A stretch of 32,000 nucleotides of DNA from Nostoc punctiforme PCC 73102 (GCF_000020025.1 NC_010628.1:6840001-6872000); one strand, 5' to 3'; positions 457 through 18,539 are shown, counted from the stretch's first letter. The notes: generated by a model from the letters alone, not told the origin. A program made the numbers and translations.

Positions 457-1533
457 ATGGACAATACAAATCAAAAAAAAGCTTTAATTAACAGCGAAAT
501 CTCCCTCTTTCTTAGAGGTTTGATTATTGGTAAAGTGCTGACACTTATGGTTATTGGTGGGCTGCTTTGGTGGTTACTAAAGCCGAATTTATTGTCCCGT
601 AACAGCGTTAACTCTTCTTCTAATCAAAGTTACAAGACCGTCTCTAATACTGCATCTAGTTTTCAGACAGTTGCAGATGTCCCCACTGCCTCATTTAACT
701 ACGGAGGAAGTACAGCTTGGGCATCTATTCGGCAATTGGTAGATTCTCAGATTCAGAGCGATCGCCCGGAACTACAATTACGTTATGTAGACCCTGTTAA
801 TGCTAGCCCTGGTTCTAGCTCAGGTATTAGGATGTTACTTGATGGGAAACTAGATTTTGCTCAGTCTTCTCGTCCCCTCACAGATGAAGAACAAGCTATA
901 GCAAAAGCGCAAGGCTTCACCCTTGAGCAACGTCAGGTAGGTATAGATGGAATAGCAGTGGTAGTCAACCCATCACTCAATGTCCCAGGTTTAACTGTAG
1001 ACCAATTGCAGCAGATTTATTTGGGGAAAATTACTAACTGGAATCAAGTAGGTGGGCCCAACCTACCCATCACACCTTTATCTCAACGACCAAAGGACGC
1101 AGATACAGTAATATTCCCTAGCAACAGCGACTTGAAGGGGCAAGCACTTGGCTCGAATGTGCAATATGTCTACTCTACTACAGAGGCAGTGCGCCAACTC
1201 AGTAAAATCCCTGGTGGTGTGTATTATGGTTCTGCCCGTTCGGTAGTGCCTCAATGTAGTGTGAAGGCTTTGCCATTGGGTCAGACTGCTGGTCAATTAA
1301 TTCCCCCCTATCGGGAACCTATGGTGTCGTCTGAGCAATGTCCGCGTCAGCGCAATCAGCTAAATACTGAAGCTATCAAAAATGGCAGCTATCCGATGAT
1401 TGCTAATTTGTTTGTGATTATTAAGCAGAATAAAGGTCGGGAACAGCAGATTGGGGATGCATACACCAAACTTTTATTAACTGACCAGGGACAAAGAGCA
1501 ATTGAGCAAGCTGGTTTCGTCAGTGTTGACTAG
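457..1533 (+). CDS. PstS-family (PBP_like_2) phosphate-binding protein with N-terminal membrane anchor
   Basis: 358-aa ORF. It has an N-terminal hydrophobic helix (VLTLMVIGGLLWWLL). The motif run FNYGGSTAW, IRMLLDGKLDFAQSSRPLT, GIDGIAVVVNP and LTVDQLQQIYLGKITNW is typical of PstS-like substrate-binding proteins. Confidence 0.6.
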   Translation: MDNTNQKKALINSEISLFLRGLIIGKVLTLMVIGGLLWWLLKPNLLSRNSVNSSSNQSYKTVSNTASSFQTVADVPTASFNYGGSTAWASIRQLVDSQIQSDRPELQLRYVDPVNASPGSSSGIRMLLDGKLDFAQSSRPLTDEEQAIAKAQGFTLEQRQVGIDGIAVVVNPSLNVPGLTVDQLQQIYLGKITNWNQVGGPNLPITPLSQRPKDADTVIFPSNSDLKGQALGSNVQYVYSTTEAVRQLSKIPGGVYYGSARSVVPQCSVKALPLGQTAGQLIPPYREPMVSSEQCPRQRNQLNTEAIKNGSYPMIANLFVIIKQNKGREQQIGDAYTKLLLTDQGQRAIEQAGFVSVD

Positions 1534-1565: not shown

Positions 1566-1600
1566 AAGAACCCCGACTTCTTAAAGAAGTCGGGGTTCTT
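1566..1600. terminator. Perfect 15-bp-stem hairpin (aagaaccccgacttc/ttaaa/gaagtcggggttctt) between convergent genes; probable bidirectional terminator and dispersed repeat
   Basis: The inverted repeat was read directly. It lies 33 nt after the PstS-like stop and 31 nt after the xisI stop. Confidence 0.6.
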
Positions 1601-1630: not shown

Positions 1631-1966
1631 TTACTCGACAGCATAAGAAGTAAATTGGCGTTTAAAAGGAGAATGAAACCCAATCACAATATCAGAATGG
1701 GGTACACCTAACTCAACCAATCGTTCAGCAACAGACTCTTCTGTACCATTATACTGAATCCATATTTTCTCATTTTGAATATCAAAATGCATGACCGGGC
1801 CAAACACCCGCTTATCTCCTTGCCAGCCAACATAAGCTAGTTGATAATGGTCATTTTCATTGTCTAAAATTAATTGTGAATTTACTGTATCGGTATTAGA
1901 TGCTATTTGTTGATGTTCGCTCAATACTTGTTTGATAAGTTGTCGATAGCGTTCTATTTTATCCAT
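1631..1966 (-). CDS. xisI: XisI-family protein
   Basis: 111 aa. MDKIERYRQLIKQVL...HFDIQNEKIWIQYNGTEE...LVELGVPHSDIVIGFH matches the XisI family. Its ATG overlaps the end of the xisH reading frame (ATGGATAAAATAG), the usual xisH-xisI junction. Confidence 0.8.
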   Translation of the reverse strand: MDKIERYRQLIKQVLSEHQQIASNTDTVNSQLILDNENDHYQLAYVGWQGDKRVFGPVMHFDIQNEKIWIQYNGTEESVAERLVELGVPHSDIVIGFHSPFKRQFTSYAVE

Positions 1967-2368
1967 AGTCGAATTTCCTCACATCTTGGGTCGTAAACTA
2001 TCAACTTAACTTGGTAACGATGAAGAGCGCGTTGGACAAAAGAAAGTTGAAAAAAGTCTTGATATGTTTCAATAGGAACTGCTAGGTAAAGCGCTCTGTC
2101 TGCTTCTTGTTCTTCAATGGCTTGGCTAATTTAGATATTGTCCTAGTGCAGTATGAAATTCACTGATATCTGAATCTGCAATAAAACTCTTAATTTCAAC
2201 AGCTATTTTCTCTGTATTACGTTCTGCGGCAATGGCATTTTCAGCCGCTAAGTCTATTTGTAGTTTAATTGCTTCACTAATACGAATTGTAAAAGGATCG
2301 TGAGTAATTATCCACCCATCCTTAATTAATGCTTTTTTAACCTGTTGATGAAAAACATCTTTAGCCAT
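1954..2368 (-). pseudogene. xisH: XisH-family gene interrupted by a frameshift (or sequencing error) near 2126-2133
   Basis: The N-terminal 80 aa (MAKDVFHQQVKKALIKDGWIITHDPF...FHTALGQYLN) stop at TAG 2128-2126. The rest of the family-typical sequence (SQAIEEQEADRALYLAVPIETYQDFFQLSFVQRALHRYQVKLIVYDPRCEEIRLWIK) continues from 2127 in another frame to TAG 1956-1954. The 415-nt span fits a 2-nt loss from a 417-nt gene. Confidence 0.7.
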
Positions 2369-2417
2369 GTTGCTATCTCTAGATTAGGCCAGATTAACCT
2401 AAAATGATATTGTTGCT

Positions 2418-4244
2418 CTATGCAATGCGTTCCCCAAAGGGGTTGTCGTTCGTGCAGCGTGTCGTAGACAAGACATCGCACTCTCCATTATTCTGCATTG
2501 CTGTGGCAAGTTTTTCTAGATTTTGACTAATAGAGACACTACGGTGATGATTTACACCCCAGACTTGCTCACAAATATCTAAAGCTTGCAAATAAAGCGG
2601 TTCTGCTTCACCGTAACGTCCAGTTGCACGATAAATTTCTGCCAAATTATTGAGACTTTCGGCAACATTGGGATGATTTTCTCCCAATAGGTGCTTATCA
2701 AGTTCTAAGGCTTTTATACATAAAGATTCGGCTTCATTGTAGCGTCCTTGCTCCCTGTACATATAACCAAGAGCATAGATAGTATCTGCTAAAAGTGGAT
2801 GCGCCTTTTGCAATACACGCTGCTTCAGTTCCAAGGATTCTAAAAACAAAGATTCTGCTCGATCGTAGCGTCCTTGAGCGCGGTATATCAATCCTAAATT
2901 GTGCAAATCTGTTGCAACATCAGGATTCTCTTCTCCCAAAAATCGCTTATCTAATTCTATTGCTTGTTGCGACAATGGTTCAGCTTCAGTATAACGTCCT
3001 TGATGATAATAAAGTAGCGCTAAATTATTCAGTATAAGAGCGAAAGAAAGATGATTTTCACCAACCAAACGTTTTTCAAGTTCTAATGATTGCAGATACA
3101 GAGGTTCTGCTTCGTCATAACGTCCTTGCTCATCATATAGTAATGCCAAATTGTTCAGACTGACGGCGACATCCGCATGGTTTTCTCCCCACAAGCGTTT
3201 CCTCAGTTCCAAAGCTTGTTGATATAGGAGTTCCGCTTTAGCATATTGTCCAGTAGATTTGTAAAGTCCCGCCAAATTATTCAGGCTAGTAGCAAAAGAA
3301 GGATGATTGTCTCCTAGCAGGCGTTTCCTTAGTTCTAAAGCTTGTTTATATAAGGGTTCGGCTTCGCTGTACTGTCCTGTTGCACGATATATTCCAGCTA
3401 AATTGTTGAGACTATTAGCTAAATCTATCTGCAAACCTAATTCATTTTGTAGCTCACTCGCCTGTCGCCAATATTTAATTGCTAATTCCTGTTCTTCTTG
3501 ATAATTTTGAGATTCACCCCGATCTAATCTGCTGTGGTAAATATCGCCCAATCTTGAGTATAAAGTAGCCAATGTAGGGTCTTTAGTTCCCCGTTCTTGT
3601 TCTATTTTCTCGATTAGTTTTTGCAAATCTTGAATAGGCAAGAAAAAGGGGTTATTTTCATTAGTATCTGTGCTAGCTAATTCTGTGTCTCGAAAAACAA
3701 AGCGGATATTTTCTAATTCTTTACCAGGAATAGCATTTGTCTTTTGAGATTCAAACCGAAATACACCATTACGCCAACTCCAAAAATCAGGAGCTTTTTT
3801 AATTAGGTTGACTAAAATTTGATTAGTTACCCAAAGCACGATCGCAAATGGAAATTCGCGCAATCCTTCCCTTGTCCACTGTAAGTAACCAAAAAACTTT
3901 TCCTGTTCCGATTGCTCATTTCCCAACCTGAGAAAATAAAGTTGTTCAGCACCCGTCACAGTGATTACCGCCGGATTCTGCTGACGGAGATATTCTTCTT
4001 GTTGTACCAGTTGGTTAAGAGCAGCTTTTAGGCTCGGTTCCTGACGTGCTAAAGTCGCTCGATATGGATGGAAAGCAGGTTGTAGTTCAGCTTCATATTG
4101 AGCAATAATTTCATCGCGAAAGCTAGCATCATCGCAAACTGCAATCAGTAAGTTTAAGCCTCGTTTTTGAGCTTCAATAGAAACAATTAAATCATCATAC
4201 GCATCCTGATTTTCTCCTTCATCAAATAATTCTTCATTTAACAT
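2418..4244 (-). CDS. TPR-repeat protein: unassigned N-terminal domain of about 260 aa plus 7-8 kinesin-light-chain-type 42-aa TPR units
   Basis: 608 aa. The repeating unit is LNNLAxLYxxxGxYxEAEPLYxQALELxKRLLGxxHP, with 126-nt periodicity across about 2474-3452. The start overlaps the upstream ATPase stop by 11 nt (ATGTTAAATGA). Confidence 0.8.
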   Translation of the reverse strand: MLNEELFDEGENQDAYDDLIVSIEAQKRGLNLLIAVCDDASFRDEIIAQYEAELQPAFHPYRATLARQEPSLKAALNQLVQQEEYLRQQNPAVITVTGAEQLYFLRLGNEQSEQEKFFGYLQWTREGLREFPFAIVLWVTNQILVNLIKKAPDFWSWRNGVFRFESQKTNAIPGKELENIRFVFRDTELASTDTNENNPFFLPIQDLQKLIEKIEQERGTKDPTLATLYSRLGDIYHSRLDRGESQNYQEEQELAIKYWRQASELQNELGLQIDLANSLNNLAGIYRATGQYSEAEPLYKQALELRKRLLGDNHPSFATSLNNLAGLYKSTGQYAKAELLYQQALELRKRLWGENHADVAVSLNNLALLYDEQGRYDEAEPLYLQSLELEKRLVGENHLSFALILNNLALLYYHQGRYTEAEPLSQQAIELDKRFLGEENPDVATDLHNLGLIYRAQGRYDRAESLFLESLELKQRVLQKAHPLLADTIYALGYMYREQGRYNEAESLCIKALELDKHLLGENHPNVAESLNNLAEIYRATGRYGEAEPLYLQALDICEQVWGVNHHRSVSISQNLEKLATAMQNNGECDVLSTTRCTNDNPFGERIA

Positions 4245-5526
4245 TAATGGCTCCCTGTCTTTTCAAGCTTTCGATAATAATTGGATGAACATCATACCAA
4301 GTTTCATCAGTGCGATATTCTAGAACATACAGCCCATGTAACAAATCTAAAAACTCCGCTTGTTTCGGGTCATTGGGCATAAATTGTTCATAAACACTCT
4401 GCAAAATATCGATATCAGTTTTTCCTAAGCGTATCGAAAAATCATTGCGTATTTTATTGATTGCTTGCAGAAGAATTTTATCATCAATAATAACTTCGGC
4501 TGAGGGGTTTCGCCGGATAGTCCGCAAACAAATGCGGCAACATTCTTTAGAAATCCGAATTAACTCTCGCAATACGCCACCACTGTAAATCACAATTTTT
4601 TCAGCAGTTTCTGCTGCGATTAATTCATTGGGAATCCGCTTTTGTAAAACTTCACCAAGAATCTTTGTTGCTTCCCGGCGAGGTTGGGCATTAGGGAAGC
4701 GATTTTTACCTTTATCAAATATTTTTAAGACAGGCATTGCTACAACTTGATCGTTGGTTTCAGTAGCAATTATTGTGCTGATAAATGTTTCCCGAAGGAC
4801 TGCGATCGGAATAGTGTAAATAATTTGAAAGTTTGGTTGACAAAGAGCTTTAATGTTATCTCGATAAATTTCGTTAACTCTTCCTAAGTCAAGTTTGTCT
4901 AAATCATCAATAATTACTAAAACGTTTTGTTTAGTTGCAGCTTGAATTAGAGCAGCTATTTCGTTAATCCTTGCAACTAAATCTGATAACTTGCGTTCAA
5001 ACTCTTGCTTAATTTCATCTCGAACGCTAGCATCAGCTTTTAATTTAGAGCTAATCAACTTTAAGAGGTCAAAACCTATACTAACTTCTGCTTGTAAATT
5101 AGATTCTTCAGTGCGAGTGCGGGTAGCAAACCACTTATAAAGAGCTTCTTTAGTAGATTGCGGGATATCAACTTTGCGTGCTTCTGCCTCTGTCATTAAA
5201 TTAACTGCGATCGCAAACAGTATATTAATATGATTAACAGCCGACATTTCAATTTTATCGGCAATAGAAAACAGAACTACAAAATATTTATCTTGAATTT
5301 GTCGGCTAAATTCAGCTAATAAAGTAGACTTACCACATCCGCGATGTCCTGTAAAGACAATTTTGCCATCTCCATTAGGACTATCTTCCACTAATTGGTT
5401 CAGGTCTGCAATCAAATCATCACCATATTCGACTCGAAATCTTTCCATTTCATTCCGTTCCATCAACGGAAATAGTTCGAGATTACTGTATGCTTCTTGA
5501 AAGGAGTTTAATAAGTCTTCAGACAT
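4234..5526 (-). CDS. P-loop NTPase (AAA/STAND-like ATPase)
   Basis: 430 aa. Walker A is GHRGCGKST and Walker B is VLVIIDDLDKL, followed by a helical C-terminal region. It is translationally coupled to the TPR gene. Confidence 0.75.
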   Translation of the reverse strand: MSEDLLNSFQEAYSNLELFPLMERNEMERFRVEYGDDLIADLNQLVEDSPNGDGKIVFTGHRGCGKSTLLAEFSRQIQDKYFVVLFSIADKIEMSAVNHINILFAIAVNLMTEAEARKVDIPQSTKEALYKWFATRTRTEESNLQAEVSIGFDLLKLISSKLKADASVRDEIKQEFERKLSDLVARINEIAALIQAATKQNVLVIIDDLDKLDLGRVNEIYRDNIKALCQPNFQIIYTIPIAVLRETFISTIIATETNDQVVAMPVLKIFDKGKNRFPNAQPRREATKILGEVLQKRIPNELIAAETAEKIVIYSGGVLRELIRISKECCRICLRTIRRNPSAEVIIDDKILLQAINKIRNDFSIRLGKTDIDILQSVYEQFMPNDPKQAEFLDLLHGLYVLEYRTDETWYDVHPIIIESLKRQGAINVK

Positions 5527-6045: not shown

Positions 6046-6255
6046 GCGACTTCAAAATTAGCTTTTGCGACTTCAAAATTAGCTTTTGCGACTTCAAAAT
6101 TAGCTTTTGCGACTTCAAAATTAGCTTTTGCAACTTCAAAACTAGCTTTTGCAACTTCAAAACTAGCTTTTGCGACTTCAAAACTAGCTTTTGCGACTTC
6201 AAAACTAGCTTTTGCGACTTCAAAACCTGCTTTTGTGACTTCCAAACCTGTTTTT
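6046..6255. repeat. Tandem array of 10 x 21 bp (gcgacttcaaaattagctttt and variants)
   Basis: The units were counted directly. Copies 1-4 are identical. Copies 5-6 carry gca/aaaacta variants. Copies 7-8 carry gcg/aaaacta. Copies 9-10 are degenerate. Each unit has caaaa/ttttg inverted arms. Confidence 0.95.
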
Positions 6256-6990: not shown

Positions 6991-7812
6991 GTAGGTTGGG
7001 TTGAGGAACGAAACCCAACATCTACTTTAGGTTATTAGATTGCCCTTCACTCATTTCTTCTTAACTCACATCTCAAAAGCAATAATTTGACGGTATCATT
7101 TATAACCAGTAGTTTGGTATAAAGCCTGAAATATAACCATCATAAAATTAACTTAATGCAATATCGCCGAGCCACAATAGAAGGTGGCACTTATTTTTTT
7201 ACACTCGTAACACATAAAAGACAAAGACTATTATCCTTACCGACTAACGTATCTTTATTGAGAAATATTTTTCGAGATGTAATGCAACAACACCCATTTA
7301 TAATTGATGCCTTTGTTTTATTACCAGATCATCTGCACTGTCTTTGGACATTACCACAGGGCGATCGCAATTTTTCTACTCGTTGGCGTTTGATCAAAAG
7401 CTATTTTAGTCGCCAGTGCATTACTCTATCACAGGAAAACCTATCTACCTCTAGGCAAAATAAAAAAGAGCGGGCTATTTGGCAGCGTAGTTTTTGGGAA
7501 CACTTGATTAGAGACGAAGTAGATTTTAAAAATCACCTTGAATATATTCACTACAATCCTGTCAAACATGGTTTAGTGAAAGCTCCAAAAGATTGGGAAT
7601 ATTCCAGCTTTCATCGTTCTGTTCGTCAGGGTACGTATGATATTACGTGGGGTGCTGGGCAAGGAATTGTATTTGACTCTAATATCGGTAAAGAGTAAAT
7701 ATCGCCTAAATTGTAACTGAAATTGTAGGTTGGGTTAAACGAAGTGAAACCCAACATCAGCGTTGGGTATTGTGATGGGTAATGTTGGGTTTCGTTCCTC
7801 AACCCAACCTAC
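6991..7812 (+). mobile_element. RAYT unit: REP-associated tyrosine transposase gene flanked by REP (6991-7022) and REPIN (7725-7812) hairpins
   Basis: gtaggttgggttgaggaacgaaacccaacatc lies upstream. Downstream, gtaggttgggttaaacgaagtgaaacccaacatc is paired with the inverted copy gatgggtaatgttgggtttcgttcctcaacccaacctac. Confidence 0.75.
7156..7698 (+). CDS. REP-associated tyrosine transposase (RAYT, IS200/IS605 Y1 HUH family)
   Basis: 180 aa. The HUH motif is LPDHLHCLW. The catalytic-Tyr region is HLEYIHYNPVKHGLV. WQRSFWEHLIRDE is typical of RAYTs. Confidence 0.85.
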   Translation: MQYRRATIEGGTYFFTLVTHKRQRLLSLPTNVSLLRNIFRDVMQQHPFIIDAFVLLPDHLHCLWTLPQGDRNFSTRWRLIKSYFSRQCITLSQENLSTSRQNKKERAIWQRSFWEHLIRDEVDFKNHLEYIHYNPVKHGLVKAPKDWEYSSFHRSVRQGTYDITWGAGQGIVFDSNIGKE

Positions 7813-7963: not shown

Positions 7964-9298
7964 ATGAGCATGACAATTATCAGTCTTCGAGCGGCACTGC
8001 AAAGCCTGCCCGAAAATGCACCAGAACCTGTTATAAAAGACCTTTTCGCCCCTTACTTGTTGAGGTCATTAGGGTTTCAATCTGAAGAAATTCATCCTGA
8101 ATATAACACTGGTGACGGAGCTGTTGATAAAGCAGCCAGGAAAACTATTGGAGATGATGTCTTTTTACATACAAAATCTAATCCATACCTGCTACTGGAA
8201 TTGAAAGGGAGGGATATTAATTTATCTGAAGATGCTGCACAGTATCAAAGAACAGTTAATCAACTTAAACGTTACCTACTTGCACCTAATTGCAAAACAG
8301 TACAGTGGGGAATTATTACTAATTCTTGCCATATTCAACTGTTTCGCAAGCATGGAAAAGTGATTTATCCTGCTACACAGTGTCTTCCAATTGATGCAAA
8401 TAATATTGATAATGTAGTCGCTTCAATTAGGAAAAAAATTGAAAATCCTACAAAAGCCTTAACCATCGCGGTTTATAACAATAAAGGTGGAGTAGGTAAA
8501 ACAACAACTACCGTCAACTTGGCAGCTATCTTAACTTTTTTAGGGAAAAAGGTTTTAGCGATCGATTTCGATCCAAACCAACAAGATTTAACGAGTTCTT
8601 TAGGCCTTCCACTAAGCAAAGGTAGTGTATTTGAGGCTCTTAAGGAACGGGGTATAGAACTTCAAAGTACTCTACATCCTTATAAATTCCCCTTAAAGAA
8701 GCTTAATTCAGAACTTAGATTTGATATTATCCCTGCCGATCAAGAACTGATAGATGCACCTGAACAGCTCTTGCGTAATCATTTGCAACCTCACACTCTT
8801 TATCAAAAGCTAGAATTCTCAAGACAAGAATACGACTATATTTTGATAGATGCACCACCCAACTGGCGAGTGTTTAGCCAGCTAGGTGTATATGCGGCTG
8901 ATGTCGTTCTCATTCCCACTAAGCATAACAATCTTTTCTCTTTAGAAAATGCAGCAATAGCAATCAAGAAATTCATTCCTGAAGTCCAATCTACAAAAGC
9001 TGATGGTAGCCCCATTCCATTGCCAATTTTTTTCAATGGAGAAAAGATTACACTACCTCAGTTAGCAGTTGCTCAACAAGAAATTAATAATATTCTTAAA
9101 ACTGCTAAAAAAGAGGGATTTGATTTATTGCCTTACTTCTATCCCAGGTATACCAATGCCAAAAAAGACCTTCATATTCATGAGGTTCCAAGCTACGCTA
9201 ACATAGCTAGTTCAGCTTTCTCACGCACTCCTGCGGTTTATCGAGATCGATCTGCTCATGAATATTACAAAAATCTAGCAAAGGAGTATTTTTTATAA
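7964..9298 (+). CDS. Fusion protein: N-terminal PD-(D/E)xK / HsdR_N-like domain plus C-terminal ParA/MinD-type ATPase
   Basis: 444 aa. Residues 1-160 carry GAVD55, LLLE79LK81 and WGIITNSCHIQLF, the pattern of the type I restriction R-subunit N-terminal domain. The deviant Walker A KGGVGKTT sits at aa 174-181 (nt 8483-8506), followed by AIDFDPNQ and ILIDAPPN (Walker B). Confidence 0.7.
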   Translation: MSMTIISLRAALQSLPENAPEPVIKDLFAPYLLRSLGFQSEEIHPEYNTGDGAVDKAARKTIGDDVFLHTKSNPYLLLELKGRDINLSEDAAQYQRTVNQLKRYLLAPNCKTVQWGIITNSCHIQLFRKHGKVIYPATQCLPIDANNIDNVVASIRKKIENPTKALTIAVYNNKGGVGKTTTTVNLAAILTFLGKKVLAIDFDPNQQDLTSSLGLPLSKGSVFEALKERGIELQSTLHPYKFPLKKLNSELRFDIIPADQELIDAPEQLLRNHLQPHTLYQKLEFSRQEYDYILIDAPPNWRVFSQLGVYAADVVLIPTKHNNLFSLENAAIAIKKFIPEVQSTKADGSPIPLPIFFNGEKITLPQLAVAQQEINNILKTAKKEGFDLLPYFYPRYTNAKKDLHIHEVPSYANIASSAFSRTPAVYRDRSAHEYYKNLAKEYFL

Positions 9299-9984
9299 TG
9301 AGTAGCCTCAGCAATATTGGAAATTTGATGCATTTATATTTAGATGAAATTGACCCCGGCGAAGGAACTAATGCACCTGAATTTTTGATTAAAGCTTCAG
9401 CTCATTTGCTCAACCAGAAGGAGGGAAGAAATTGGATTCCAGTGATTGTGAAAGAAACTGGCAAAGATAAGTATCAAGTAATTGCTAACTCTTTCATTTA
9501 TGCAATCGCAGAGGCCGCTCGCTTAGATCGCGTTTGGTGCATTATTACTGATGGTAGTGATGAGACAGTTGAAGTCACAAAAGTACTAGCAAAAGAAGAA
9601 ATTCCAAAAATCAATCTCTCTAAGGCATCTAGAGATGAAATCATGGCAGCATTAGAATACTTAGTTGAACAACCAGGTAGTGTTCTTAAAGCAGTTAAAC
9701 CTGCTATAGCTACAAACCGGATTGATGAAGCTCCTCGTGAATATTGGAAGACATTAGATCCAATTCTTAATCTGAAATGTGGCATTACCAAAGGGAAAAA
9801 ACTTGATGCTTTAAATAAAGTTTTTTATCTAACTCCTCAACCAATGCCAGATACAATTACTGACACTGCTATTCTCCAAACAATGACAATAGCTGATTTA
9901 AAAGCGATCGCGAAGAAACGAGGAATTACTGGCATCACTAAGATGAAAAAAGACAATCTTGTTAAAGCATTGAGTAAACCTTAA
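9298..9984 (+). CDS. Degenerate ParB-like N-terminal domain protein with C-terminal Rho_N/SAP-like motif
   Basis: 228 aa. The start overlaps the upstream stop (TAATG). LYLDEIDP, WIPVIVKE and KYQVIANSFIYAIAEAARLDRVWCII follow ParB N-domain topology but lack the GxxRxxA arginine motif. The C-terminal ADLKAIAKKRGITGITKMKKDNLVKAL is Rho_N-like. Confidence 0.55.
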   Translation: MSSLSNIGNLMHLYLDEIDPGEGTNAPEFLIKASAHLLNQKEGRNWIPVIVKETGKDKYQVIANSFIYAIAEAARLDRVWCIITDGSDETVEVTKVLAKEEIPKINLSKASRDEIMAALEYLVEQPGSVLKAVKPAIATNRIDEAPREYWKTLDPILNLKCGITKGKKLDALNKVFYLTPQPMPDTITDTAILQTMTIADLKAIAKKRGITGITKMKKDNLVKALSKP

Positions 9985-10229: not shown

Positions 10230-10760
10230 CTAATAAGCGTCTTGCAACTCGTAGAAATCAGGCGAGATGTAATCCTTCCGCAAAGGCCAACCTACCCAAT
10301 CTTCCGGCATCAAAAGCCGCTTGAGATTTGGATGTCCTTCGTAGATAATGCCAAACATATCGTAAGACTCGCGCTCTTGCCAATCTGCGGTTTTCCAAAT
10401 CCAGTACACAGAAGGGACTACAGGATTTTCCCGTGGTAAGAACACCTTAACTCGAACTTCCTCGGGGCGATCGCTATTATCACCGACTTTAATCAAGTGA
10501 TACATACTCACCAATTCTTGTCCTGGGCCAAGGTCTATACCACCTTGACATTGGAGATAATTAAACCCGTAGGCATAAAGGGCTGTAGCGGTGGGAAGCA
10601 AGAAATCTGCCGACACCTTAATTATCTCTACACCATTCTTATCTGGTGCTAAAAACTCATGGTCAAAGCCATTTTCCGTCAACCACTGGGAAACTTTACC
10701 CGCTTGTACCAATGACTCTTCTTTCTCTGCTGGTACTGGTTTAGATTCTTCTTCAGCCAC
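10230..10760 (-). CDS. ndhJ: NAD(P)H-quinone oxidoreductase subunit J
   Basis: 176 aa. [36 protein letters not shown] is the NuoC/NdhJ signature. It overlaps ndhK by 8 nt. Confidence 0.95.
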
Positions 10761-11490
10761 GGGTTTGTTCCTCCTTTTGCGCCTTTTCTGTCAGCAGTGC
10801 AGGTGGTATTGGCATACCTATTGCTTCCGCCAATTCCTTCGGTGGTGCAGAGCGAGTATCTGACTGCAAATACTTACCAGTTAAGATTTCCTCTACTGGC
10901 TTCAGGTTATGAGTCGTGCTGTAGTAGCGGTGGGTTTGCTTAATTTTATCCCGCTCTTGAATCGACTCATTGGAGATTTTCTTCCGCAGCTTAATGATTG
11001 CGTCGATAATTGCTTCTGGACGGGGAGGACAACCAGGCAAATACACATCTACAGGGATCAGTTTATCGACTCCGCGCACTGCCGTGGGGGAATCAACGCT
11101 GAACATCCCGCCAGTAATTGTGCAAGCACCCATCGCAATTACATACTTCGGCTCTGGCATTTGTTCATAAAGACGCACCAGTTGGGGAGCCATCTTCATC
11201 GTAATAGTCCCTGCCGTAATAATTAAATCGGCTTGGCGGGGGCTAGAACGGGGAATCAGCCCAAAACGGTCAAAGTCAAATCGGGAACCAATTAAAGCTG
11301 CAAACTCAATAAAGCAGCAAGCAGTACCAAACAGTAACGGCCACAGACTAGAAAGCCGCGCCCAGTCGTAGAGGTCATCAACCGTCGTCAAAATGACGTT
11401 TTCTGAAAGGTCTTGAGTGACATTGGTTCGCTCAATAGGGTTGATGATTCGCTGTTTGTCCTGAGTTGTTAAATTAGAATTCAAGACCAT
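10753..11490 (-). CDS. ndhK: NAD(P)H-quinone oxidoreductase subunit K
   Basis: 245 aa. It carries the Fe-S ligand motifs [21 protein letters not shown] and LPGCPPRPE (NuoB/NdhK). Confidence 0.95.
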
Positions 11491-11843
11491 TCCAAAGCTC
11501 CTTTACGCCATGCGTAAACTAAAGCGACTACAAGAATTGCAATAAAGACTAGCGCTTCAATAAAAGCCAATAGCCCCAAACGGTGGAAAGCTACCGCCCA
11601 AGGATACAAGAATACAGTCTCCACATCAAAGACGACGAAGACTAGAGCAAACATGTAGTAACGGATGTTGAACTGAATCCAGGCTCCCCCGATGGGTTCC
11701 ATACCAGATTCATAAGTAGTGCGACGTTCTGGGGCATAACCACTAGGTCGTAGGAGCTTGGAAGCTGAGAGCGCTAAGGCAGGTACTAGGCTACAGATTA
11801 TGAAGAAGCCTAGAAGGTACTCGTAACCGCTGAGGACAAACAC
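11481..11843 (-). CDS. ndhC: NAD(P)H-quinone oxidoreductase subunit 3
   Basis: 120 aa with three hydrophobic segments. [40 protein letters not shown] is the NuoA/NdhC signature. Confidence 0.95.
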
Positions 11844-15506: not shown

Positions 15507-18500
15507 TTACATACCCAGGAGTTCATCTAGCTGCAAGTTTGGCAAGTCTGGAGGAATCACGGTTCGCACTATTGTGACTTTGTGGCTTTCTTGTTGAGTT
15601 GTCAAATCAAGTGCGATCGCTTCTATGCGAATTTCTAAACAGCCAAAGGGAATCTTTAATTGTGTCATTACTTCCAGACCTCCCAATACATTAGGTAGTA
15701 AATTTGTCAATAAATGGGGTCCATCTAGTAACCAGCGAGTTTGATAATCTTCAACCCATAACTTCACAACCACTTGGGGAGGAACTTCAGGCAGTACTAC
15801 GCGCACTATGATCAACTTGTCGGCGATTAGTTCGCCTTCTGGTACATACAGTTGCGGAATTGGCAAAGGCTCAATGGCACCCGCAGTTATGGATAGAGAA
15901 GGGGATAAAGCTAACAAAGGTTCCTTCTCTTCTTCTAAGAAGTAATTATTAGTTGCATCGGCTTCTAGTTCACTCTCTGTATCATCTACAACGATTTCTT
16001 GCGCCAACCAAGCTGACGCTATATTTACTTTTATGGGAGGAGGGGGAGGCGGTAGTTGTCTTACTAAAGCCATTGAAAGTGTTGATTCAGATACTTTTTC
16101 TATCGCCGTATCTTCCACTGTCTCTAGATCGGTTTCCTTTACTGTGTCTGTATCTTCCCCAAAGTTCTCAAGATCAAAAACTGACTCTTGGCTTTCTTCC
16201 CACGTCTCTGTGGCATCATCCAGACTTAATGGCAAGTTGACATCAACATCGGGAGTTCCAGCACTAAGAAAAAGCTGGGTCTGCTGGGCTGAAACATTGC
16301 TATCGTAGTTTTGAGATTCCAGTTCATTGATGGATTCAGGCAAAGAGTATCCTTGGCTCTGCATCCACTTCCTTAGTAAAGGAGATGAGTAGAGGTTGCC
16401 TGTTGTAATGAATTGTGCGTTTGGCTGGGTTTCTACCTCAGCAACAAATTCTTCCTGAAATTGTTCATTTGGCTGGGTTTCTACCTCAGCAACAGATTCT
16501 TCCTGAAATTGTGCATCATCTAGTACTAATTCCGGTACATTTTCATCCTCAGCTACAATTGCGTCTAACTGCGGGAAGTCTTCAGTCGCTTCAACTGCCA
16601 ATCTATCTGGGGGGACATTATTTTTGACTTCTTCTGCATGACCTGGCAAAGCTTGTACCCGTCTCAAGTATGGAAAAGTCGTATTGAGTATTGACATTCG
16701 ATGTTGCTTGATAACTAACTGCTCCAAGTTGATAGCAGCTATAGTAGTATCCTTTTCTACAAGCTCCTCTTGTGTAGGGGATTCTGCAATAACATCTGTG
16801 CGAGGGTTGGCATCGATTTGAAGAGGTGGCAATTTCGGCAATTGAGGCGAATTGCCTGAATTCTTTAAGTTAGATGTCCGCAGAGTGGTTTCTCGCAGAA
16901 CTTGCAGGTTAATTTGCGGCGGTAAAGCTGTATTTGGAGATGGATTGAGTATTTGAGATTGGTCTGTTTTTGAAATCTTGACCAGATTGAATAGTTTTAA
17001 ATCGATTCTCACTGCGGTCTCTGGCTCTGTGGAAGCATCAGGCGAGTCCGATGGGGCTATAGGGTCATTTAAGGATGTACTAGGTTTTGCTGCGGCTGTT
17101 ATTGCCAGTAATTCTGTTACATCTGCTGTAATGGTGAAGGACTGGCTAGCTAACCGGATGATTTCATCAACATCGGTGAATCGACCATACAAACTGATAT
17201 CTGCCAAAATTAACTTCGACTCAAAGTCAGCAGGAATATCAATTGAGGTATTGATGGTGAAGGGCAACTCCTGGTCTGGTAAGTGCCGTATCTGGGTCAA
17301 GATTTCCGACTCTAGGGGCGATCGCAGTTCAATTCCTAGTTCAAGCGCCTGCAAGCTTTTTGGAGATAATGTTTCACCCTGCTCTAAATTTGTCTTGTCT
17401 TTAAGTTCTATGCGCCCATTTATTGTAAGAGCTTGTCCCCAACGAGCAATATAACTATCTCGATCTAAAGTTAACAATAATGGTGGTTCTGTTGCTGGCG
17501 AATCTGTAACCTCTTCATCATTCAGAAGCAGTTCAGAATCGGGTAAAGCTAAATCTATTAAATTTTGTAAAATTTGCTCTGCCGTCTCACCTTTGAGCCA
17601 TACAGGACTTACAGGATCATCGATAACTATATCTTTTTCCGTTTCATCGGGAACAACTGTGGTGACAAGGTTGCTATCTGTAGCAATTTCCAATTTTGCC
17701 GAAACTGCGATCGCTTCATCTAGAGTAATTGCAGGCTCTTCCGGGGCAGTATCCAAGTTGCCTTCATCGGGAACAACTGTGGTGGCAGAGTTGCTATGTG
17801 TAGCAATTTCCAATTCTGCCGAAACTGCGATCGCTTCATCTAAAGTAATTGCAGCTTCTTCCGGGTCAGTATCCAAATTCTCTTCATCTGGAACAACTGT
17901 GGTGACAAGGTTGCTATCTGTAGCAATTTCCAATTTTGCCGAAACTGCGATCGCTTCATCTAGAGTAATTGCAGGCTCTTCCGGGGCAGTATCCAAGTTG
18001 CCTTCATCGGGAACAACTGTGGTGGCAGAGTTGCTATGTGTAGCAATTTCCAATTCTGCCGAAACTGCGATCGCTTTATCTAAGGTAATTACGAGTTCTT
18101 CTGGGGCGGTGCATTCCAAGTTTCCAGAAACAGTATCAGCCCGATCGGGTGAATTTAATTCTACATTTTTCCTTTGCTCTGCCTCTTCTTCCTCGGACAA
18201 TACTTTAATTTGGACACTGTATTGCCAAGATTTACCGAGTAAATCCGACATCAAATCGCCAGTACAGCGCAACTCCCAAACTCCCGTATCGAAGTAAGTA
18301 AAGGGAATTACCGCCATTAAGCCTTCTGAATTAGTGCGACGCGATCGCTTGAAAATTCGCCGCGTTGGTTGAACTTCCTGAGTTGAAGAGTGAGTTACCC
18401 GCACTTCCACGTCTGTATTAGAAAGGCTAGAACGAGCCAAAACTCTATACTGCCCTTCCAAAATTTCCAAATTTGGCGATTCTAGAATATGCCACGAGCG

Positions 18501-18539
18501 AGCGCCTTGTTTCTGTATCAGAAATTGCCAGTGTTCCAT
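15507..18539 (-). CDS. Large acidic repeat-containing hypothetical protein (1010 aa)
   Basis: This is the longest ORF in the window. It has ordered-looking N-terminal (about 120 aa) and C-terminal (about 130 aa) regions. The E/D/T/P-rich centre contains 4 x 40-aa repeats, a 2 x 16-aa repeat and a PPPPP run. No family was recognised. Confidence 0.75.
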   Translation of the reverse strand: MEHWQFLIQKQGARSWHILESPNLEILEGQYRVLARSSLSNTDVEVRVTHSSTQEVQPTRRIFKRSRRTNSEGLMAVIPFTYFDTGVWELRCTGDLMSDLLGKSWQYSVQIKVLSEEEEAEQRKNVELNSPDRADTVSGNLECTAPEELVITLDKAIAVSAELEIATHSNSATTVVPDEGNLDTAPEEPAITLDEAIAVSAKLEIATDSNLVTTVVPDEENLDTDPEEAAITLDEAIAVSAELEIATHSNSATTVVPDEGNLDTAPEEPAITLDEAIAVSAKLEIATDSNLVTTVVPDETEKDIVIDDPVSPVWLKGETAEQILQNLIDLALPDSELLLNDEEVTDSPATEPPLLLTLDRDSYIARWGQALTINGRIELKDKTNLEQGETLSPKSLQALELGIELRSPLESEILTQIRHLPDQELPFTINTSIDIPADFESKLILADISLYGRFTDVDEIIRLASQSFTITADVTELLAITAAAKPSTSLNDPIAPSDSPDASTEPETAVRIDLKLFNLVKISKTDQSQILNPSPNTALPPQINLQVLRETTLRTSNLKNSGNSPQLPKLPPLQIDANPRTDVIAESPTQEELVEKDTTIAAINLEQLVIKQHRMSILNTTFPYLRRVQALPGHAEEVKNNVPPDRLAVEATEDFPQLDAIVAEDENVPELVLDDAQFQEESVAEVETQPNEQFQEEFVAEVETQPNAQFITTGNLYSSPLLRKWMQSQGYSLPESINELESQNYDSNVSAQQTQLFLSAGTPDVDVNLPLSLDDATETWEESQESVFDLENFGEDTDTVKETDLETVEDTAIEKVSESTLSMALVRQLPPPPPPIKVNIASAWLAQEIVVDDTESELEADATNNYFLEEEKEPLLALSPSLSITAGAIEPLPIPQLYVPEGELIADKLIIVRVVLPEVPPQVVVKLWVEDYQTRWLLDGPHLLTNLLPNVLGGLEVMTQLKIPFGCLEIRIEAIALDLTTQQESHKVTIVRTVIPPDLPNLQLDELLGM
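16420..16515. repeat. Intragenic 48-bp tandem duplication
   Basis: tttggctgggtttctacctcagcaacaaattcttcctgaaattgttca is repeated with 2 substitutions. It encodes (E/A)QFQEE(F/S)VAEVETQPN twice. Confidence 0.9.
17641..18120. repeat. Intragenic 120-bp repeat x4 organised as a near-identical 240-bp A-B-A-B duplication
   Basis: The rows 17641/17761/17881/18001 align directly. A versus A' differs at 3 positions near the start. B versus B' is identical until about 18076. Each unit contains a HIP1 site. Confidence 0.95.

Follow-up and report, generated by a model that had tools for sequence, protein, structure and literature searches.

Four open reading frames (ORFs) run head to tail on the minus strand within the window analysed here, a 32,000-nucleotide stretch of Nostoc punctiforme PCC 73102 (GCF_000020025.1, NC_010628.1:6840001-6872000), and encode a P-loop ATPase, a tetratricopeptide repeat (TPR) protein, XisH and XisI. 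The ATPase gene (4234..5526) specifies 430 aa and is classed by Pfam, alignment and Foldseek as a predicted AAA+ protein of Orc1/Cdc6-like type. The partner gene (2418..4244), delimited from the ORF, Pfam matches and an AlphaFold2 (AF2) model, specifies a TPR protein of 608 aa. The ORF positions place the ATPase stop and the partner start in an 11-nt overlap (ATGTTAAATGA, 4234..4244), which matches both translations, i.e. the end of the ATPase (...AINVK, then stop) and the start of the TPR protein (MLNEE...). A gap of 49 nt separates the TPR stop from the ATG of xisH, which Pfam and alignment show to be a pseudogene (1957..2368, remaining ORF 2126-2368), and this is followed by an intact xisI gene of 111 aa (1631..1966). 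A first-pass annotation had described this cluster as resembling a split STAND-like sensor, with XisH and XisI as a candidate effector pair, and our ORF check bears out its coordinates, Walker motifs, 11-nt overlap and 49-nt gap. The comparisons presented below show that the region comprises two independent units, namely the ATPase/TPR pair (Unit A, 2418-5526) and a decaying copy of xisHI (Unit B, 1631-2368).

The conservation of the cluster was assessed across 51 loci, comprising 32 from reference genomes, 13 from metagenomes and 6 from an exact look-up. In 47 of the 51, the ATPase gene is directly followed by a gene encoding the N-terminal domain of the TPR protein (hereafter the N-domain) together with TPRs; this holds for 29 of the 32 genome loci and 18 of the 19 further loci, the four exceptions being contig ends or truncated or frameshifted ATPase genes. 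The downstream product shares an N-terminal region of about 250 residues with the window TPR protein, and the adjacency persists down to 40% identity for the ATPase and 29% for this N-terminal region, in taxa that include Pseudanabaena, Acaryochloridaceae, Oscillatoria and Synechococcales. Of the 28 ATPase/partner junctions that could be evaluated, 18 overlap and 6 have a gap of 0-30 nt (24/28 overlapping or within 30 nt), with a stop/start overlap of at least 11 nt in the close relatives and in loci L035-L037. The identities of the ATPase and the partner to the window copies co-vary (r = 0.92). We also see an ATPase homologue directly upstream of partners with further modules, such as the NB-ARC+TPR protein of locus L034 and the TPR+CHAT protein of L033 (at 54% and 44% identity in these two cases). 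As the ATPase stays upstream whatever follows the N-domain, the N-domain likely acts as its constant docking partner. These data support the ATPase and the TPR protein as a functional unit, the link between them being both real and old, and the suggestion of the first-pass annotation that the two genes belong together is upheld.

The pair shows some variety in copy number and surroundings. Paralogues occur in at least some genomes, for example in Nostoc sp. WHI, which has copies at 93% and 67% identity. Locus L030 (8001-10621) has two ATPase genes in tandem, paralogues with 46% and 37% identity to the window protein, ahead of a single N-domain-TPR gene whose product ends in a hydrophobic tail that is probably membrane-spanning. 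A conserved third gene was considered and rejected, as no candidate is consistent across loci; the candidates include Ser/Thr kinases, which 3 loci have upstream, and histidine kinases, found in the vicinity of 4. Genes for retropepsin-like aspartic proteases (Asp_protease_2/gag-asp_proteas) come immediately after the TPR gene, in the same orientation, in two distant loci, one from Microcoleus (L016, 12931-13404) and one from Oscillatoria (L025, 11429-11911). Genes of the Uma2 family (putative restriction endonucleases) adjoin the pair, upstream or downstream, in 4 independent loci (L002, L017, L021 and L038). The Uma2, kinase and retropepsin-like families are abundant in cyanobacteria, and the presence of Uma2 next to the pair is probably background.

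The two remaining genes of the cluster were assigned to their families by Pfam. XisI matches PF08869 over its full length (positions 1-110 of 110, E 1.6e-46, 157.7 bits against a cut-off of 25), while XisH matches PF08814 (E 6.5e-35, 120.7 bits, cut-off 25), with profile positions 3-80 of 134 contained in the ORF. Of the roughly 138 codons of xisH, the ORF retains 80 before a stop, and the C-terminal half (1957-2121) lies in another frame. Alignment with L001, L004 and L007 identifies the lesion as a 2-bp deletion between window bases 2127 and 2126 (AATTA--GCC vs AATTACTGCC), and because of this deletion the overlap of xisH with xisI (1957-1966, 10 nt) is confined to the shifted xisH frame. 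The first-pass annotation was therefore right about the family of this gene and its start at 2368, but the gene is not intact and overlaps xisI only in the shifted frame. The restriction endonuclease-like fold that had been ascribed to XisH agrees with its published description as a PD-(D/E)XK fold (PMC3424549).

Adjacency of xisHI to the pair is not conserved across the 51 loci, so that the four-gene arrangement proposed by the first-pass annotation does not hold beyond a narrow group. We find xisHI downstream of the pair only in the window, L001, L004 and L007, with remnants in L006 and L018, all of these being near-identical syntenic Nostoc loci. Outside this group, none of the loci has xisHI except for one xisI remnant in L030, and intact xisHI follows the pair in 0 of more than 30 independent loci. 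Within the group, at least three different kinds of lesion have inactivated xisH: the window has the 2-bp deletion, L001 an insertion of 137 bp, and both L006 and L018 have large deletions. The L001 insertion (~11531-11658) carries an inverted repeat (CCCCAACCCCTCTCC...GGAGAGGGGAG) and resembles a miniature mobile element.

The place occupied by xisHI is a variable slot. Syntenic loci with 94-98% identical ATPases carry, in the same slot, a Uma2 endonuclease gene (L002), a crystallin-like ORF with insertion sequence debris (L003) or a RAYT (REP-associated tyrosine transposase) gene (L010), and all three retain the flanking phosphate-binding-protein-like gene, which in the window (457-1533) is convergent with xisI. 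Among more distant genomes, PIN-PhdYeFM fills the slot at L036 and DUF2887 at L035, and others show nothing of note there. Between xisI and the convergent gene lies a perfect 25-nt palindrome (CCCCGACTTCTTAAAGAAGTCGGGG, 1571..1595), a REP-like hairpin that marks the far end of the slot; related REP-like hairpins flank the RAYT gene of L010. Alignment of the 3' junction shows that homology among the loci ends at the last codons of the TPR gene, right after ...GCAATGCAGAATAAT, and the last ~20 codons of the window partner are therefore strain-variable DNA.

The closest known counterparts of these genes are xisH and xisI in the fdxN element of Anabaena (Ramaswamy 1997; Hwang 2014, as cited in PMC4853749 and PMC4874684). 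The window copy shares with them the same Pfam families and the arrangement of xisH upstream of, and overlapping, xisI. It differs in that xisH is frameshifted, no interrupted gene is evident, and no recombinase domain of the XisF type was found among the window ORFs scanned with Pfam, a scan that covered some of the ORFs. On either side of xisHI lie ordinary chromosomal genes, which are also syntenic in relatives without xisHI. Multiple xisHI pairs that lack xisF occur in filamentous bacteria (PMC4853749), and the window xisHI belongs to these orphan copies, which abound in filamentous cyanobacteria and Beggiatoaceae. As its adjacency to the pair is not conserved, the slot cargo swaps and xisH is repeatedly broken, xisHI is almost certainly a decaying selfish passenger, independent of the pair, rather than its effector. 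The first-pass annotation had itself raised the alternative of an unrelated selfish pair that landed nearby, and it is this alternative that the locus comparison favours.

These observations bear directly on the idea of a conflict system made up of all four genes, with the ATPase and TPR protein sensing an invader and the XisH nuclease acting as the effector under XisI control. The genes do share one strand, XisH does have a nuclease fold, and a scan for promoters and terminators gave no terminator-like site in the 49-nt gap between the TPR gene and xisH, although that scan was uninformative (1 site per 5 kb vs 3.9 expected), with site counts at or below the shuffled expectation. The arrangement also recurs in L001, L004 and L007, and the xisI remnant of L030 lies downstream of a distant pair. 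However, recurrence limited to near-identical syntenic Nostoc loci amounts to one evolutionary event. Near-identical ATPases occur with other cargo in the slot, no intact xisHI follows the pair in the independent loci, xisH has been inactivated on at least three separate occasions with the pair left intact, and no PADLOC system matches. We consider a four-gene system highly improbable.

The ATPase carries a Walker A motif (GHRGCGKST, residues 60-68, nt 5323-5349) and a Walker B motif (VLVIIDDLDK, residues 202-211, nt 4894-4923). By pattern reading, T238 is a candidate sensor-1 residue, and the sensor-2-like stretch SGGVLRELIR (residues 315-324, nt 4555-4584), with R320 as the candidate sensor-2 arginine, may belong to the lid of an AAA+ protein. 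In the homologue alignment, GHxGCGKST, DDLDK, T238 and SGGVLRE with R320 are invariant. There are more than 1564 homologues, and every one with an organism name is cyanobacterial. The window protein is 99% identical to Nostoc proteins, and identity between genera is 65-75%. The orthologue in Anabaena PCC 7120 is all3839, and from the numbering we take all3838 to be its partner gene. A literature search for all3839 and all3838 gave unrelated papers only, and neither the PCC 7120 nor the PCC 7107 proteins could be found by accession in the supplements examined from two Aravind-lab papers.

Matches of the ATPase in Pfam are to general P-loop families only (AAA_16 at E 7.5e-10, AAA_22 and KAP_NTPase). 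Scores for NACHT (20.3 bits vs a cut-off of 26.7) and NB-ARC (15.6 vs 23.5) are below threshold and cover the P-loop region only. A profile search against the PDB was not useful (best E 0.016), PHROGs gave a weak clamp-loader match only, and NCBIfam gave nothing specific for the cluster proteins. Likewise, PADLOC returned weak matches at the P-loop level (VakA at 3e-8 over 80 residues; PifA and mad8 at ~1e-4) plus a generic TPR model. Neither Pfam, NCBIfam nor PADLOC detects an effector domain in the ATPase or the TPR protein, as the first-pass annotation had also reported.

Structure prediction is more informative about the ATPase. The AF2 model is of moderate quality (predicted local distance difference test score, pLDDT, of 66), and its secondary structure consists of a beta-alpha core with a helical lid. 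The top Foldseek matches in the PDB are Cdc6 (1fnn, E 1e-7), Cdc6/Orc1, ORC subunits and RdrA, the RADAR ATPase, with further matches to TnsC, RuvB and p97; no NLR, Apaf-1 or MalT chain is among the 50 matches listed for this moderate-quality model. The ATPase is thus predicted to be an AAA+ protein that is Orc1/Cdc6-like by fold. Residues 363-430 have a pLDDT below 50, and within them the invariant LHGLYVLEYR...WYDVHP resembles a helix followed by a beta-hairpin wing; we take the conserved stretch near the C-terminus (residues ~390-416) to be a probable winged helix.

The partner protein consists of the N-domain, a disordered linker (residues ~166-200) and about 7 TPR_10/TPR_12 repeats (residues ~251-590, nt 2475-3494), with 7 TPR_10 repeats detected by Pfam (E 1e-81). 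The N-domain (~165 residues; predicted domain at residues ~10-165, 3750..4217, minus strand) has no Pfam family, and a profile search against the PDB found nothing. Its AF2 model is a five-stranded alpha/beta domain with a pLDDT above 90 over residues 10-165. Foldseek matches this model to ORC3, archaeal ORC2, ORC4, clamp-loader delta, Rif2 and TnsC in the PDB, and the best viral matches, from BFVD, are AAA ATPases and RFC. The N-domain itself has neither a Walker A nor a Walker B motif; the Walker A motif is found in 118 of 120 ATPase homologues vs 0 of 221 N-domain relatives. Other positions are invariant, namely FGYLQWTRE (118-126), T140 at the sensor-1 position, and DFWSWR (153-158). From the model we predict the N-domain to be a pseudo-ATPase, AAA+-like in fold, from which the nucleotide-binding motifs have been lost.

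A profile of the N-domain retrieves 194 clusters at E<=1e-30 among 1.84 billion representatives, and the domain is nearly always N-terminal. TPR_12 is present in all 71 long representatives, and the TPR arrays of the partner proteins vary in type and in number (7 to 16 repeats). As in the window protein, 67 of the 71 long representatives have TPRs only and no effector, and the other four have extra modules: NB-ARC+TPR in two proteins, TPR+CHAT protease in one and TPR+GTPase in one. One further protein, P0319, combines an ATPase-like N-terminus with the N-domain and TPRs, and was considered as a Rosetta-stone fusion. This was rejected because ATPase residues 1-245 are joined to the N-domain only from residue ~59, which resembles an internal deletion chimera.

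Among known systems, the nSTAND2 operons of Kaur, Iyer, Burroughs and Aravind (2021, eLife; PMC8195603) offer the closest parallel. In these, a gene for an active NTPase with a winged helix-turn-helix (wHTH) is followed by a gene for an inactive NTPase with wHTH, TPRs and HEPN. The likeness to our pair lies in the adjacent genes, the combination of active and eroded NTPase modules, and the TPRs on the inactive one, and a hetero-multimer has been proposed for nSTAND2. In nSTAND2, however, the inactive module is followed by a wHTH and a HEPN or GT4 effector, and the system is mobile in proteobacteria, whereas the window pair has no effector, a dead domain of only ~165 residues, and vertical inheritance in cyanobacteria. 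An hhalign comparison with 11 sequences of the published nSTAND2 alignment gave probabilities of 2.0% for the N-domain and 0.2% for the ATPase. The pair is nearest to nSTAND2 in architecture but, judged by sequence, is not a member.

Orc1/Cdc6 and the ORC complex provide the best structural matches, both for the ATPase (1fnn, 2qby, 7jgr) and for the dead domain (ORC3, ORC4, archaeal ORC2). The predicted likeness extends to the AAA+ core, the lid, the probable winged helix and the mixing of active with inactive AAA+ subunits. It is a likeness of predicted folds, with identities of 9-14% and TM-scores of ~0.4, and the window partner differs in carrying TPRs. STAND and NLR-type proteins (Avs, NB-ARC-TPR, MalT) resemble the pair in joining a P-loop NTPase to a C-terminal TPR array, and true NB-ARC modules occur in the rare partner relatives. 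The window system differs in that it is split over two polypeptides, its NTPase scores below the NACHT and NB-ARC thresholds, it has no N-terminal effector, and PADLOC gives no Avs match. A MoxR-vWA iSTAND system was ruled out because no MoxR or vWA gene lies nearby. With Cdc6/ORC-type fold matches, sub-threshold NACHT and NB-ARC scores, and a partner that appears to have a degenerate AAA+-like domain of its own, the pair does not fit the first-pass view of a split STAND-like sensor. We conclude from the models that the architecture is likely that of an active ATPase subunit and an inactive AAA+-like subunit with TPRs, and not one STAND protein cut in two.

On this basis we propose that the ATPase and its partner form a heteromer. 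The two proteins would be made together by translational coupling. The dead N-domain would then dock onto the live ATPase, by analogy with the inactive subunits of ORC, clamp loaders and nSTAND2 pairs, and its R125 or R158 may contribute to the ATPase site. The TPR array would bind a ligand or partner protein, and ATP binding or hydrolysis would switch the assembly state. As the window version has no enzymatic effector, the output would come from the winged helix of the ATPase or from the assembled TPR scaffold. Unit B, the xisHI copy, almost certainly takes no part in this. We put the probability of this statement as a whole at roughly 0.6.

Several points weigh against it. The ~60 C-terminal residues of the ATPase are unmodelled in a model that is only moderate overall, and a winged helix there is guessed from the pattern of the sequence. 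The N-domain fold comes from one AF2 model with Foldseek E-values of 1e-4 to 1e-2, and profile comparison with hhalign gave no sequence link between the N-domain and either the pair's own ATPase or nSTAND2. The sole C-terminal feature common to the 71 long relatives is the TPRs, and we infer the binding between ATPase and partner, as well as the ligand and the output. In addition, there is the unexplained xisI remnant of L030 (12966-13061), a C-terminal piece of 32 codons (LVKEELVEAVIPKDRIVLAFHPPYVREHTGYAIN, followed by a stop) situated 235 nt downstream of the TPR gene of a distant pair (46% ATPase identity) and preceded by short tandem repeats. From the xis density in 460 kb, we estimate that ~0.05 such cases are expected by chance. 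It may be a chance event, or xisHI cassettes may favour such sites.

An alternative to the heteromeric switch as formulated above would cast the pair as a module for immunity or programmed death, NLR-like and of the kind that Kaur et al. (2020, 2021) describe in multicellular bacteria, in which the TPRs recognise an invader protein and the effector is the complex itself or a partner encoded elsewhere. The parallel with the two-gene nSTAND2 operons (PMC8195603) is consistent with this, as are the rare relatives with an N-domain before NB-ARC+TPR or TPR+CHAT, the expansion of paralogues and the variable repeat arrays. The L034 pair furthermore adjoins EAD10+NB-ARC+TPR and CHAT genes, and 'effector positions' filled by repeats only are common in such systems (PMC7159879). 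Against these stand the absence of an effector in 67 of the 71 long relatives, the lack of a PADLOC match above noise, and an hhalign probability of 2%, i.e. no sequence homology to nSTAND2. For defence genes, vertical descent with synteny and such strong conservation are also atypical, and we regard this module as unlikely.

The genomic neighbourhood raises another possibility. In the Nostocaceae loci L014, L029, L036 and L037, the pair lies directly downstream of ndhC-ndhK-ndhJ on the same strand. This ndhCKJ-ATPase-partner synteny is shared by Anabaenopsis, Cylindrospermum, Nostoc 106C and Nostoc LEGE 06077, and also by the window, apart from an insertion. Because of the shared synteny, the pair appears to be vertically inherited. 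In the window, Pfam identifies ndhC (11481-11843), ndhK (10753-11490) and ndhJ (10230-10760) on the minus strand (10230..11843), and ~4.7 kb of inserted DNA, absent at that place in L014, L029, L036 and L037, separates ndhJ from the ATPase gene.

This context suggests a housekeeping role, in which the pair, as an AAA+ chaperone with a TPR adaptor, would help to assemble thylakoid complexes (NDH-1 or photosystem I) or to control their quality. Ycf3 is a TPR assembly factor with a comparable role. Besides the ndhCKJ synteny, this is favoured by a Pseudanabaena locus (L022) in which the pair directly follows two large genes, recognised as psaA/psaB by eye only, by the high identity between genera, and by vertical inheritance. 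The window is otherwise housekeeping in content (argG, recG, phoX, ycf48) and is not a defence island. In most other loci, however, the neighbours of the pair are unrelated (e.g. kinases, recR, scpB), and in this genome the ndhJ-ATPase link is itself broken by the insertion. The existence of paralogues and the variation in TPR number and type also count against an assembly factor, and the rare NB-ARC, CHAT and GTPase relatives fit signalling or conflict better. An assembly role for the pair therefore seems rather improbable to us.

The insertion upstream of the ATPase gene has features of its own. It contains a RAYT gene (7156-7698, plus strand; NF047646, E 9e-63) and, at 7964-9984 on the plus strand, a gene for a 444-aa fusion of HSDR_N_2 (restriction-enzyme N-terminal, PD-(D/E)XK-like) with ParA/AAA_31, which is followed by an overlapping ORF of 228 aa with a Rho_N-like C-terminus. 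A 21-bp tandem repeat (6046-6247, 9.6 copies, 96% identity, unit GCGACTTCAAAACTAGCTTTT) is found ~520 bp upstream of the ATPase start, and yields long, repetitive, spurious ORFs on the minus strand. Elsewhere in the window, a minus-strand ORF of 1010 aa (15507-18539) has no Pfam family at E<=1e-5.

In summary, the four-gene proposal can be set aside, which spares the repair and expression of a cluster whose nuclease half is a passenger. The slot downstream of the pair is a small hot spot with interchangeable xisHI, Uma2, RAYT and toxin-antitoxin genes, and it informs how orphan xisHI spread and decay. What remains is a very widespread cyanobacterial gene pair with an orthologue in the genetic model Anabaena PCC 7120, and a tractable case of an active AAA+ subunit paired with what is predicted to be a degenerate one that carries a repeat sensor. 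Through occasional fusions to NB-ARC and caspase-like modules, the pair is linked to the NLR-like machinery known from multicellular bacteria, and its heteromer, if borne out, would represent another way of building such switches. More speculatively, the N-domain may be a previously undescribed adaptor family (no Pfam model, at least 194 clusters at 50% identity) whose members bring a dedicated Orc1/Cdc6-like ATPase in trans to TPR, NB-ARC-TPR or TPR-CHAT scaffolds, a suggestion that we offer tentatively and with more doubt than belief. Were it to be true, NLR-like switches with a separate and obligatory motor subunit would form a class spread throughout the cyanobacteria, which could serve cell-fate or immune signalling or, in view of the ndhCKJ and psaAB neighbourhoods, the biogenesis of thylakoid complexes.

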